64,000 nt of DNA, taken from Euglena gracilis (lineage: Eukaryota). Position numbers and translations under genes: made by a program. Each line of letters opens with the position of its first letter. The stretch's first letter is position 1. This document shows positions 3,777 to 55,612 of the stretch, in pieces. The notes under the pieces are model-generated. The model searched no databases and was not told the DNA's origin. It saw nothing but the letters and a program-made list of their open reading frames with translations. Location of the stretch: assembly GCA_039621445.1 (NCBI GenBank), contig CP154954.1, positions 21,774,954 to 21,838,953 on the forward strand. The letters are read 5' to 3'.

Positions 3777-4066
3777 CAGGCTTCTTTTTAAGTCACCTGA
3801 CCCCCCCCCCCCCCGGGGGAGGGGAGGTGGGAGGGGGGGTGCGGGCCCGCCCCCCCCCCCCGGGGGGGGGGGGGGGGTCCCGCGCCGGAGGCGCTGGGTA
3901 TACCTTTGCGCAGCGCCGAAAATTTTTTGAAAATTGCCTTTAACGGGCCCGATTTTGGGGGGGTCCCCGCCCCCCCCCCCCCCCCCCCGGGGGGGCCCCG
4001 CGCCACCCTGGGTGGGTGGGGGGGGACCCCCCCCCTCCCCCCCCGGGGGTCTTAAAAAGAAGCCTG
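3777..4066. mobile_element. hAT-type MITE, family A
   Basis: 16-bp perfect TIR CAGGCTTCTTTTTAAG / CTTAAAAAGAAGCCTG; 8-bp TSD GGCAGAAT at 3769-3776 and 4067-4074. Confidence 0.95.
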
Positions 4067-4675
4067 GGCAGAATCACCGCTGGTGAGAAGGGGGCCATTG
4101 TGGTTCCAACATTTGGGTCGTGAGCAACGGTTTGGTTCCGCATCGCTGATTTCCCCACGCTTGCACCCGTTGCCTTGGCCCATCTGCAGGCCCCACGTTC
4201 ATCTGCTCAAATAGAGCGATATTTCTCACTGCTCGGTCACACAAAAGGCTGGTACGAATGAGGATGCAAATGATTGAATTTTTCGATACCGTCAAAAATT
4301 GTTTTTCATACCAGCTTTTTTGCCATTCAAACATCGGATCGTTTGAATATGTCTGATACGACGCTCACCTCTTTAGCCTTTATTTACATGAACAAGAGCT
4401 TGTATGACATCTCTGCGTGAAGAGCCGCACATTGACCTTTGCATTTTTGTTTTGTGCTCTGATGGCTCAGCTTATGGGGCACTTCCTTTTGATCTTGGCG
4501 AGACAATTCAGAAAATCATTGCATCCCTTCACATTTTTTTCTGTGACGGATACCCCCACCTATGGCCGACTATTTGCCGACCAGGGCCGACCAGGGCCGA
4601 CCAGAGCACCAAAATGGGATAGGTGCCCGTTCCCGTGTCGCCCCAGCCAACCCCAGCCAGCCCCGCTGCCCCCAG

Positions 4676-4893
4676 GACCTGAAGGAGCTGAAGGACAGCG
4701 GCAAGGACGGCTCCTTCGGCCACAAGCCGCCCCTCCTCCCCGTCGAGCAGCAGTCGGACTACCTCCTCATCGAGGACCCCCTCGTGGTCGCCCACGCGCT
4801 GCTGATGGAGGCCGCCGCCCGCTCCTGCGGCGAGAACGTGTCGGTAGTGCTGCTGTGCTTCGCCGGGGCTCCCAGGCCCCTCCAGAGCTCCAA
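4676..4893 (+). CDS. Exon encoding the C-terminal part of a PP2C/PPM-like phosphatase domain
   Basis: CAG acceptor at 4673-4675; GC3-rich codons; DPLVVAHALLMEAAARSCGENVSVVLLCF resembles the PP2C terminal helix and GSxDNxTVxVV motif. The 3' boundary is approximate and upstream exons were not found. Confidence 0.7.
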
Positions 4894-5206
4894 GTTCAGG
4901 AGGGGTTGGTTTGGGCCCAATGTAGGTATGGTTTTCTGGCATGTGTGTGTGTGTGTGTGTGCATGTCTGTTTTCTGTGTCTGTTTATGCGTGGGTGGCTC
5001 GGTGGGTGGGTGGGTTGACGTAGCTGTGAGTGTGCGTGTGGGTGTGGGTGTGGGTGTGCACGTGTTTGCAACAGCGTCCAATGCACTGTCTTGTTGAAGA
5101 GGGTTCTGCCTCCATCCAGCGATGCCCCACAGGCACCGTGATCCTGCATGACACTGACCTCCCCCTCCAAGCCAGCAAGGCAAACAGAAAAGGGCGAGCC
5201 ACACAT

Positions 5207-51819: not shown

Positions 51820-54479
51820 GTCTGCCTCTCTGCCTAGGGATGTAGAGCTTCTTTGTAACAGGAAATCACCAAGGCTTTGCAAGAGCAGTTAGAAGATGTT
51901 TAACTTGAGATTCATGACACCAACGGCCAGGTGGTGTGCAAGAAGATATTCCCGATGAAATATTTTTGCACAAATGTACAAATGAAGTGTAATTTGTTAT
52001 CTGTAACACCGATATCGACAACAAAGTGTGGGCCGAAAATGGTTTGGTTTCTGCAGCGTGCAGTTACCTCGTTTATCTGTTGTTGCTCCTCAACTAATTC
52101 CACAACAAGGCCCGCCATTGTCTTTTTTGTGGTGTCAACAATGGCAAAACATAGTCAAGCCAGTGAATAGCTTAGCAGAAGGAGCATTGATAAAAATTAT
52201 CACTTCCTTGGCGCTTTGCACCATTTTTTTTGTTTCGCAGCTTGGTGCATGTTTTGGACAATTATACGAACTTCTTTTAAATAGGACACATGAAAGCATA
52301 AGCAAAGCAGTGTCTTAAACAGTGCACAAATACATGGTTTGTCTTGCCGGAAAACATTTCAGTGCAGGAAATCATGGTCGAAAGCAGTCGAGCAATGGCT
52401 TGTGAACTGGAAAGGCATGATTTGTCTGCCGGAATACATCGGAATTTGAAATAATGAAATAATAAAATCCTGAGGCTGTGATTATGCACCGTTGGCAGGA
52501 TATATACCCCCCCAAATAATAACCCCCCCCCCCCAAATAATAAACCCCTCCAAATAATAGCCCCCCCCCCCCGAGGACCGACTTCGGCCGCCCAAATAAT
52601 AACCCCCCCCTCTGGCAGGTGTGAGGGCAAAGGAAAAAAGAGTCAAAAATAAGCAGAAATGTTGCAAAAAAAAATCAGAAAAATGGATCAAATTGGTGCA
52701 GAAAATATGCCAAAAAAGCACCCAATTTTCAAAAAAGTCCCAAAATGCCAAAAAAAGTGGCCATTGGAGCCTGTGGAGGGGTTTTCGTGTCGATTTTTGA
52801 CTTCGAAAATTTTGTCCATATAATAAACCCCCCTGGACCCCGACTTCAGGTGTCCAAATAATAAACCGGGGGGGGGGGTATTTAGGGGGGGGTTTAGTTG
52901 GGGCAAAAAGAGTGATGGGATAGTTGGCGACAATATGACTAGTGAACATACCACCAATGATACCTCTTCCACAACGACATGATTTGACGATGTGTTCCCT
53001 TGAGAAACACCCATCAAACATGTCATCCGGCTTGGCAAGGCTCAAGAACCTTAACATAAGCACCCTCAGGTCTCCCGAAAACCCAAACAGAAAACTGCAC
53101 ATGGGCAGTTCTTTTCAGAAAAAAAAACTGCAAAAAACTGCAAGAAAACTGCAAAAAAAAACTGCAAAAAAACCAAAATATGAAACTGCAAAAAAAAATG
53201 CAAAAAACTGCACGGTGCATGTTTTCCCCCTCCCTGCATGAGCTAATGGAGGCGCATGACAACCCCCTTCATAGAACCCATTGCACCAAAGAAATTCTGT
53301 GGATTTACAGCAACAGAGAAGGGAGACAACCAAAAAAACCTGACGGGAACAAAGCGACCCAAGAAATACAACCCATCGAAAGATTTCTAAAAACGTACCA
53401 ATTTGCGCCTTTTACACTTCTTTTGAAAGATTATTTGCACCTAAGAATGACAAAAATTGTAAAATTTCACAGCCAAAACAGGGTTGAAACCAGCATTTCA
53501 TATAAACTAGTTTCAAATCTAACAAGAACACAATTTTCCGATTGAATGATTACAGATGAATAGACACCCAAAACCTCCATCCTGCTGACCTCCCACCTTG
53601 CACGCACTCATCGGTCCCCTGCCCCCCCAACTGCGTTTGCGATTGACTGAATTAAACATGGAACCTTTCCAGATGGTTTCTCTGCCAAAGGAATCAAGGC
53701 AGTTTGGCAGCTTTTGCGTTTACACAGATGCGACGTGAAGCACAATCCGCAAAACCAGTCGGCAATCCGGCATCCAAACGCATGCTTTCTCTTGCGGTAA
53801 ACACATTAAATCAGGGAAAACCATGTTTGGGGCAGCAAAGTTTGGCAATTTTGCAATAATGTCCATCCATTATTTCTCCTGTCACAAGCATTTTAGTGCA
53901 TGATAAATATGTACAGTGCAAATTTGATTTTTTGTTTCCATTTTTGGTGTTGTCAACTTCAAATCTGGGCAAAAAAAATGCCAAACGTGAATTGGGTGGG
54001 GGTGCTTATGGGGTTGCAGGTTCCGTTGTTTTGGAAATTCACTTCTTTTGTTGTGATTTTGTTGAAGTGCAGGTTTTTACAGGTTTTTTTCCAGTTTTTT
54101 TTTGCATTTTTTGCAGTTTTTTTTTTGCAGTGCAGCTTTTGAATGGCCCGTGTGCAGTTTTTTGGCTTTCTCGGCATTTTTGTTTTTTTGTTCAATTTTG
54201 GCGGAATTTGTATTTTCTTCCGAGTTCTGTTGGGGAATGATGTCGATTAGGAGCATGTGGCCACGTGGCCACTTTTTCTGTCGGGTTTTTGTCATTTTCG
54301 GCCAGCAAATGCCATAGTTTTGGGAATAGGTCACAATTAGAAGAAGCCACATTTATGGATTTTTATGGAATCCAAGTCGCCCTTGCAGGTTTTGCCTTTT
54401 TTGTCTTTTTTTGTCAGGTATTTTGAGGGTCCACGTTGTCTTCCTTGTCGGCCTTGTCCCCCGCCTCCCTCTGCCTCAG

Positions 54480-54571
54480 GAGACGGTGGAGCACGTGATG
54501 CAGAAGCGGCAGGAGCAGATCAAGGCACTGGCCAAGCCTGCCGTGACGCTGTCGGAGACCGGCCGCAACCT
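54480..54571 (+). CDS. Gene X exon ETVEHVMQKRQEQIKALAKPAVTLSETGRN(L)
   Basis: CTCAG acceptor, phase 0; GC3-rich; ends at the MITE. Confidence 0.88.
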
Positions 54572-54574
54572 GGT

Positions 54575-55612
54575 CAGACATTCATTTAGTGTGGTACACC
54601 AAGGTGGTCATTTTGTGGTTCACTGTGGACACCACAAAAAATTTTGTGGTTCACCTGTGGACACCAAAAATTTTTTTGCGGTTCACTTGTGGACACCAAA
54701 AAATTTTTTGTGGTTCACCTGTGGACACCAAAGTAATATTTGTGGTTCACATGTGGACACCAAAAAATTTTCCACCGCCTGCTGACATTTGCATCATTTT
54801 CTTTCTCATCAACAGCAATGAAGCAATCTTCTTTGAACATGTTTGACTCAGGCGGTGTAAGTTGGCCCAAAATTCTGGTGCTCTAAAAACAGAAGAGGAA
54901 GCGGAAAACCACTTCCAAAAAAGGGTCATAGTTTTCGATTTTTTTTTTGAGGAGGTTCTGATTTTACCAATACAGTCGAAAACAGACCTAAGAAGGCCAA
55001 TTTACTTTCGAATTCTAGTAATCAACAAAACCAATCAAGAAATATATGAACAGGAGGAACCGACAAAAACAAGCGTTGTTTCTGCTGCCGTAGGCCCCGA
55101 AGGAACGAAACAGAAAAATTAAAAAATGGAAGCGGTAAATATTGCATTCCGCTTCAAAAGCAGGAGATGTGCAACGAAAACTGAACGCAATGAATCATAC
55201 ATAATGTAATGTAAAAAATATGCATAATGTTTGCACACCAAAAAGGAAGCGTAAAACCGCTTTGAAAGAATCCGTAAAAAAAATAGTATGAATTGAAATG
55301 ATCAACAATGATCACCAAACGATATTCCAATCCCAATAACAACGAAGAACGTTAACATTTGTGGCTGAGGTGTCTAAAGATCAATCCGCCTTTAGGTGTA
55401 AATTTAATTTTTTTCGATCCTCAATGAATTTTTGTGGACCACAAAATTTTTTGTGGACACCACAAAAATTTTTGTGGTTCACTTGTGGACACCAATAATT
55501 TTTTTGTGGTTCACCTGTGGACACCAAAAAAAAATTTGTGGTTCACCTGTGGACACCAGAAAAAAATTTGTGGTTCACACGTCTTTTGTGAACCACACTA
55601 AATGAATGTCTG
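54575..55612. mobile_element. Young hAT-type MITE in coding sequence; predicted nonconventional intron 54572-55617
   Basis: 21-bp perfect TIR CAGACATTCATTTAGTGTGGT / ACCACACTAAATGAATGTCTG; perfect TSD AACCTGGT at 54567-54574 and 55613-55620; ~30-bp subterminal repeats TTTTGTGGTTCACCTGTGGACACCA at both ends. Confidence 0.96.

Follow-up and report, generated by a model that had tools for sequence, protein, structure and literature searches.

Euglenid genes carry nonconventional introns that follow a splicing code of their own, 5'-N3 CDG ... CH'G N5-6 / R (the slash marks the exon border), with a strict 3-nt spacer at the 5' end. This code was defined by knock-ins, and in Euglena agilis 71.8% of introns are nonconventional and 84.4% of introns have direct repeats at their borders (PMC12501133). 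The code is oddly asymmetric. Here we describe a 64-kb stretch of Euglena gracilis DNA ("the window" always means this whole stretch) containing short inverted-repeat elements flanked by 8-bp target-site duplications (TSDs), two of which lie in the 3' untranslated region (3'UTR) of a kinase-PP2C gene and are skipped in RNA.

A source among MITEs (miniature inverted-repeat transposable elements), or something like them, has been proposed for these introns since 2014 (one such proposal is PMC3935182). PMC12501133 calls the origin of the introns unclear, perhaps MITE-like, and the words hAT and duplication are absent from it. PMC11282704 describes the CAG and CTG motifs as terminal inverted repeats (TIRs) and the border repeats as TSD-like, giving no length or superfamily, and it states that nonconventional introns are excised as full-length circular RNA. 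An 8-nt direct repeat has been described at an intron newly gained by gapC in one E. agilis strain, and was read as the result of break repair (PMC4770533, 2016). A MITE-like origin and an 8-nt repeat at a new intron are thus already in print, and the present work extends a known hypothesis. The published work that we examined contains no actual MITE families and no link between the lengths of spacers and TSD. In searches of the literature outside subscription journals (20 of 225 rows in one of them), we found no statement that 3 + 5 equals the TSD and no superfamily assignment for Euglena introns, but the sliding-distance figure and supplements of PMC12501133 may hold an 8-nt signal.

We consider it probable that the window carries about ten families of non-autonomous cut-and-paste MITEs (200-2100 nt) which the nonconventional machinery can remove as introns. 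In the mechanism we propose, a transposase making 8-bp staggered cuts would insert the element. The element's ends would then pair in the pre-mRNA, so that the two TSD copies meet as single-stranded tails at the foot of a hairpin. The nonconventional machinery would read the foot of the stem (C-G, A-U, G-C), make one cut 3 nt upstream of it and another 5 (or 6) nt downstream, and join the exons, the spacer rule itself being published genetics. Because 3 + 5 equals the 8-bp TSD, this would remove the element plus one TSD copy and give the mRNA back the sequence that it had before the insertion, in either orientation of the element. For the MITEs themselves, the 3 + 5 register (which is unreadable when the TSD is perfect) and the indifference to orientation would both follow from this scheme.

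Skipped stretches in the RNA of a kinase-PP2C gene

The gene in question reaches into the window with its last exons. Its penultimate coding exon (4672-4869, + strand) matches the eukprot protein EG_transcript_705 at 100% identity and is also present in a contig of run X15; on the evidence of this match, the window is E. gracilis nuclear DNA. EG_transcript_705 encodes a protein of 1158 aa with kinase, PP2C and receiver domains. The last coding bases are at 5114-5141 (+ strand): the final eight residues (SSDAPQAP) are encoded at 5115-5138, the stop codon TGA occupies 5139-5141, and the 3'UTR extends to approximately 6376, where the X15 contig ends.

Reads and contigs on 3472-9143 came from four public runs: raw RNA-seq reads (X21 and X24), contigs of a run which is RNA by our guess (X15) and contigs of a DNA run (X11). 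A "joint" in this context is a pair of window positions that are adjacent in a read or contig, and joints are reported from the best 15 of 185. RNA skips three stretches of the gene, located in its last exons and 3'UTR, and each of the three joints has depth 0 in the DNA run. We read them as removed at the RNA level. All three joints occur on one X15 contig of 4068 nt, the first 3312 nt of which match nothing in the window and are therefore upstream exons, so the contig is a processed mRNA. No back-joint, as circular RNA would give, was found among the best 15 of 185 joints.

The first stretch is an ordinary nonconventional intron at 4870-5113 (+ strand). Its joint (4868->5113) skips 244 nt, can be moved by only 1 nt and is supported by five X21 reads, one X24 read and the X15 contig, with none in X11. 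Since the border is nearly fixed, shifting the joint one place rightward lets the spacers of 3 nt and 5 nt be seen directly (TCC-CAG...CTG-CCTCC, next exon base A), and the intron fits the published N3-CDG...CH'G-N5-6 code. A short terminal stem can be found by eye, but it is absent from the minimum-energy fold (z -0.09).

The other two stretches are MITEs, both on the + strand and both in the 3'UTR. The one at 5780-5992 (family F3) is 213 nt long, with a perfect 16-nt TIR (CAGGGCAGAACGGGAA) and an exact TSD (ACCGTCCC). Its joint (5771->5993), seen in five X21 reads and the X15 contig but in no X24 read and not in X11, is movable by 8 nt and skips 221 nt, i.e., the element plus exactly one 8-bp TSD copy. 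An earlier, preliminary description of this DNA had argued that the 3 + 5 flanking nucleotides equal the 8 of the TSD, and in this one clean case (213 + 8 = 221) the arithmetic holds. The code fits in one of the nine equivalent registers of this joint.

The MITE at 5207-5684 (family F2) is 478 nt long, with ends CAT...ATG and an exact TSD (CCACACAT). Its joint (5201->5686) skips 484 nt, is movable by 4 nt (CACA) and has four X21 reads and the X15 contig, with none in X24 or X11. The spacers therefore sum to 6, the code does not fit, and the mRNA retains two bases beyond the restored target; this exception could be due to alleles that differ in their CA repeat, or to the stem being read from one pair further inside. 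Reading the sequence at both MITE joints, none of the allowed registers gives GT..AG.

When folded, both MITEs form hairpins with the 8-nt tails left unpaired. At 5780-5992 the energy is -130.2 kcal/mol (z -6.8) and the stem closes exactly at the element ends; at 5207-5684 it is -245.2 kcal/mol (z -5.9), again with the terminal stem exactly at the element ends. Such stability invites a different explanation, namely that reverse transcriptase jumped across a stable hairpin between direct repeats (8 and 4 nt at the two joints) and that neither joint reflects splicing; for these two joints it is the chief technical rival. Both joints are in the 3'UTR, where there is no reading-frame proof, and the lack of X24 reads also suits this explanation. 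We nevertheless think it improbable: X21 and X15, two independent libraries, both contain these joints (in X15 the joined form is the assembled path, with depth 130), and these same molecules have also lost the neighbouring intron, whose homology is 1 nt. The 5780-5992 removal also fits a code that works in living cells, as judged by knock-in phenotypes (PMC12501133).

Another possibility is that the short forms are expressed DNA alleles which lack the MITEs, i.e., empty or excised sites. At exon positions 4700, 4726 and 4846, the letters of the window differ from those of the RNA runs and X11, which agree with one another. These mismatches suggest that the assembly derives from another strain or haplotype than the public runs. 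Hence more than one of these exists, and contigs cannot prove the absence of an allele. However, X11 agrees with the RNA at all three variant positions, yet its depth at the joints is 0. One X11 contig (5967-6376) starts within the MITE end and continues into the flank, unbroken at 5993, so the site is occupied in X11 DNA, with no branch to an empty form. Furthermore, the 484-nt skip is not an empty site (which would be 486 nt) and does not occur in the DNA. We give unseen alleles hardly any credence, and RNA-level removal remains our reading of all three stretches.

The first exon base downstream of the removed unit is A for 4870-5113, C for 5780-5992 and G for a further MITE, at 54575-55612 (+ strand, family F10), whose splicing is proposed from sequence. 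This 1038-nt element has a TIR of approximately 34 nt and an exact TSD (AACCTGGT), and it splits a coding-like exon. GC content at third codon positions (GC3) is 0.88 before the element, the frame stays open for 20 more codons past the restored site, and codons after that site have a GC3 of approximately 0.8 (hand count). Its ends fit the full published code including the purine (GGT-CAG...CTG-AACCT/G), and we infer that it is spliced out. No protein match was found for the surrounding coding-like exon; two repeat-rich proteins (He_PIG Ig repeats and a weak LysM match) came up and were taken as chance.

Inventory of elements

Elements were detected by scanning for inverted ends with direct repeats beside them and by searching with each end motif. 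The search yielded 15 candidate short inverted-repeat elements in 3777-55612. Their ends are nearly always CAG...CTG inverted repeats, and integration duplicates 8 bp of the target. The start is CAG in 14 of 15 and CAT in the remaining one (5207). The end is CTG in 8 of 15, the others being CCG (7581 and 10398), TTG (38196 and 38774), ATG (5207), CTA (42486) and CGG (53833). Ten elements have an exact 8-bp TSD (those beginning at 3777, 5207, 5780, 7581, 10398, 38196, 38734, 38774, 53833 and 54575), two match at 7/8 positions (42486, and 10140 when the insert at 10398 is taken out of its end) and three at 5/8 (16044, 32016 and 44580). Three insertions are nested or abutting: 10398 at the tip of 10140, 38774 within 38734 and 54575 within 53833.

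The preliminary description correctly placed the elements across 3777 to 55612, the first beginning at the one position and the last ending at the other. It counted 13 elements, nine with exact TSDs; the elements are real, but there are 15 by our count, ten with exact TSDs, and since that description gave no coordinates the two sets cannot be mapped one to one. Its 11 CAG starts and single CAT start have become 14 and one, and the single CTG start that it listed has no counterpart among the 15 candidates. It also had most elements ending in CTG, which applies to 8 of 15, and its variant ends CCG, TTG and ATG all recur, to be joined by CTA and CGG.

Ten TIR types (F1 to F10) can be told apart, with three copies each of F1 (74-82% identity) and F6. 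The F1 copy at 3777-4066 (290 nt) has ends CAGGCTTCTTTTTAAG...CTG and an exact TSD (GGCAGAAT) at 3769-3776 and 4067-4074, and lies within the intron, 4.6 kb long or longer, whose last base is 4671. A second copy at 10140-10391 (252 nt) has TSDs CCTGATGA and CCTGACGA, which agree at 7/8 positions once the next element is removed. That next element is the third F1 copy, at 10398-10703 (306 nt, CAG...CCG), with an exact TSD (TGCCTGAC) and a target which overlaps the final 2 nt of the 10140 copy.

Two of the F6 copies are at 16044-16329 (286 nt, CAG...CTG, TSD decayed to 5/8) and 44580-44868 (289 nt, CAG...CTG, TSD 5/8). The third, at 38734-39751, is 1018 nt long, has an exact TSD (AACACAAT) and holds the nested F7 element at 38774-39496 (723 nt, CAGGCACCTATG...TTG, exact TSD CCCGGGGG). 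F4 is represented at 7581-8423 by 843 nt with CAG...CCG ends, a TIR of 11/16 and an exact TSD (AGGAAGGG), and bins of raised DNA word depth coincide with its extent; an F4-like copy at 32016-32215 (200 nt) has CAGGGCGGTC ends and a TSD of 5/8. F8, at 42486-42958, is 473 nt long with CAG...CTA ends, a TIR of 12/16 and a TSD of 7/8 (TGTGCAAC vs TGTGCGAC).

Two candidates are weak. One is F5 at 38196-38643 (448 nt, CAGAGAAAC...TTG), which has an exact TSD (TATTTTCT) but a TIR of only 10/16. The other is F9 at 53833-55921 (2089 nt, CAG...CGG, TIR 12/16, exact TSD GTTTGGGG), which is doubtful in that it encloses the coding-like exon together with F10.

Chance controls and element borders

In the first control, exact 8-bp direct repeats directly beside a TIR of 10/16 or better, CAG being required at an end, were counted in the window and in 60 dinucleotide shuffles. 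The window gave 11 matches, two of them (26810-32285 and 35140-39820) chance-like, vs a shuffle mean of 0.47 and maximum of 3. In the second control, a TIR of at least 12/16 was required and the length L of the repeat abutting both ends was varied. There were 18 matches each at L=5 and L=6, 4 at L=7, 8 at L=8 (4 with CAG), a single one at L=9 and none at L=10, with a shuffle mean of 0.45 at L=8. None of the commonest ends listed for L=5 and L=6 starts with CAG, and we read these two lengths as background, above which the repeat count peaks at 8. Element ends with 8-bp repeats are far beyond chance.

Records from the sequencing runs fix some borders independently. In 22 DNA-run records the sequence is common from 5780 inward and different before it, and in several runs records diverge directly after 5684 and directly after 4619 (the end of a high-copy repeat described below). 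The ends at 5780, 5684 and 4619 are therefore established without reference to the repeats that abut them.

These observations bear on the idea that the 8-nt repeats came from staggered double-strand-break repair with filler DNA, the origin proposed for the repeat of 8 nt at gapC's newly gained intron (PMC4770533). Repair of that kind would not be expected to give what the window contains: TIR families found at several unrelated sites, with a separate 8-bp repeat at every one (three sites for F1, three for F6), nested insertions, and many DNA-run copies with common element ends. This is the signature of a transposase, and we regard break repair as very improbable here.

Families and interiors

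The preliminary description spoke of unrelated families with different interiors. Ten TIR types and mostly unlike interiors agree with this, but F1 and F2 are not wholly unrelated, since they share a hairpin motif, GGCGCnnnGCGCCGAAAWTTTT. This motif has 10 matches in the window (8 places, two overlapping pairs) vs 0.07 expected, at 3905, 5366-5396, 10242-10272, 10561-10591, 16960, 36765 and 40383 (both strands). F3 contains a similar GGCGCC hairpin, seen by eye. Three places with the motif are outside every defined element.

Coding frames that span the restored sites were sought for 12 elements. They were long only at 7581 and 42486, where GC3 is ordinary (0.49-0.52) and the translations do not look coding, so these candidates were rejected; RNA depth at 7581 is nearly nil.

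Superfamily

The TIRs of hAT elements start with YARNG, and hAT transposases prefer nTnnnnAn as a target. The full YARNG start is present in three of the ten families (CAGGG twice and CAGAG once), and the remaining starts are CAGGC, CAGGA, CAGCA, CAGAC and CATAC. An 8-bp TSD is what hAT makes but is not unique to it, because Merlin makes TSDs of 8-9 bp. The window was also scanned with Pfam. This covered 73 of its 176 listed open reading frames (ORFs) with a length of 110 aa or more, namely those that reach about 140 aa and lie outside long simple repeats. None of the 73 matched a DNA transposase, and the only matches were Ty3/gypsy-type fragments at 853-3387.

The hAT identity put forward in the preliminary description is thus only a candidate. 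The 8-bp TSDs and CAG starts speak for it, whereas the target consensus is absent, full YARNG is confined to three families and the 73 ORFs contain no transposase. We infer a transposase from some superfamily which makes 8-bp TSDs, and this leaves room for the elements to be Merlin (IS1595-like), or to belong to another such superfamily, with everything else in our reading unchanged. For E. gracilis, two families of Merlin have been reported which have a conserved DDE motif, TIRs that are near-perfect and TSDs of 8 bp (PMC8101967). No paper was found in which Euglena, hAT, transposon and intron come together, and Euglena appears in none of the 20 rows listed, of 225, from a further literature search. 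However, Merlin TIRs have a conserved terminal 5'-GG (PMC8101967); none of the 15 elements starts with GG, while 14 of 15 have the hAT-like start CAG. We therefore somewhat favour hAT-like ends over Merlin, and hold a non-hAT superfamily to be unlikely, though worth keeping in mind.

Other features of the window

The intron upstream of the exon at 4672 is at least 4.6 kb long and ends at 4671, the upstream exon being a loose end before 4672. Its 3' end (...GCTGCCC/C at 4666-4671) is non-AG, and its CTG lies 3 nt ahead of the leftmost border possible. Should the unseen 5' end permit sliding by 2 nt, the 5-nt spacer rule would fit. This intron contains Ty3/gypsy-type fragments at 853-3387: integrase zinc-binding, SH3-like and chromo domains on the - strand (853-2149) and an RNase H-like domain on the + strand (2257-3387). 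They are followed by a run of 13 N at 3459-3471. A very high-copy repeat at 4422-4619, 52 nt upstream of the exon, has final letters ...GGGATAGGTGCCCG similar to the F7 end. Its summed word depth in the DNA run is thousands-fold over that of its flanks, and records in X24, X15 and X11 diverge directly past 4619.

A coding-like stretch at 57138-57695 (+ strand) has a GC3 of up to 0.95, adjoins a (CA)n array and was not assigned to a family. Collinear with it is a 163-aa ORF from a short contig in public data, with an identity of 93% in the best local alignment and 53% across the entire gapped tblastn alignment, repeat included; this suggests a second copy elsewhere.

Two larger inverted structures were seen. 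A 1464-nt foldback-like structure with long inverted arms occupies 40755-42218, with no clear TSD seen. A 3.4-kb unit at 33051-36489 has inverted ends of approximately 40 nt (CAAACAATACTAGATCACC...), again with no TSD seen, and it holds a 19/38-nt satellite (35446-36364, approximately 48 copies) and adjoins long runs of AT and ACAT. At 59256-61613, an (ACAT)n array extends for 2.36 kb (approximately 590 copies), and further tetranucleotide arrays are at 9144, 15821, 29542 and 32629. Rfam gave no matches in the whole window.

Discussion

The core idea, that a MITE can leave the mRNA together with one copy of its TSD, has direct support from RNA in one clean case, and the published code supports it too. 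Several points weigh against our reading. RNA evidence covers 2 of the 15 elements, both in the 3'UTR (from 66 nt past the stop), so no protein confirms their removal in the cell, and X24 has no reads for either joint. One of the two, 5207-5684, leaves with 6 nt instead of 8 and has CAT/ATG ends outside the published code; the other, 5780-5992, has a downstream exon base of C in both the 3+5 and 3+6 registers, not the preferred purine. The ordinary intron at 4870-5113 has no TSD (GGGGCTCC vs CCTCCATC, 2/8 matching). Both CAG and CTG are present in only 8 of the 15 elements. The hAT target consensus fails (of 12 TSDs, one has T at position 2 and five have A at position 7), and no transposase was seen in the window (0 of 73 ORFs). 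Finally, a single 64-kb window cannot give the share of introns that arose in this way.

A broader claim would be that the 3-nt and 5-nt offsets exist because their sum is the transposon's 8-bp duplication, making the machinery an RNA-level undo, and that most nonconventional introns are decayed CAG...CTG MITEs. We advance this only tentatively, and would not be surprised to see it fail. That most nonconventional introns arose from such elements is an extrapolation from the inserts described here. If it is true, a new copy in an exon would be silent at once in either orientation, which would predict how such elements can flood genes harmlessly.

What the window adds is named families with intact TSDs, one of which leaves the mRNA as element + 8 nt. 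The hypothesis thereby becomes a numerical rule that can be tested genome-wide, and the elements are natural cassettes for the existing knock-in assay.

Comparison with known systems

In structure, the elements resemble hAT MITEs, which have 8-bp TSDs and short TIRs starting with CAG. There is also a precedent for removal at the RNA level, as the maize Ds element is reportedly spliced from pre-mRNA (Giroux 1994). Unlike hAT MITEs, the elements here lack the nTnnnnAn target, have the full YARNG start in three of ten families and have no transposase or autonomous partner that we could see in the window. The Merlin elements of E. gracilis come from the same genome and have the same 8-bp TSDs and near-perfect TIRs, but they start with GG and those described here with CAG (PMC8101967).

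In their removal, they resemble the nonconventional introns of euglenids (PMC12501133, PMC3935182, PMC4770533). Such introns have non-GT-AG borders, CAG at +4 to +6, CTG at -8 to -6 and a stem beside the motifs; their borders slide on direct repeats, and they are removed in RNA, not in DNA. Unlike the published introns, the units removed here are multi-copy MITEs with intact 8-bp TSDs, one of which (CAT/ATG, 6 nt) is outside the code.

Introners (Micromonas, Aureococcus and others) offer a third comparison: they are short DNA transposons, carrying TIRs and TSDs, that become introns on insertion, and the TSD helps to define the excised unit (PMC11282704). Introners, however, supply or co-opt GT/AG signals for the spliceosome and have 3-nt TSDs in Micromonas (PMC11282704), whereas in the elements described here the signal would be the TIR stem with its fixed offsets of 3 and 5 nt, the sum of which is the length of the TSD.

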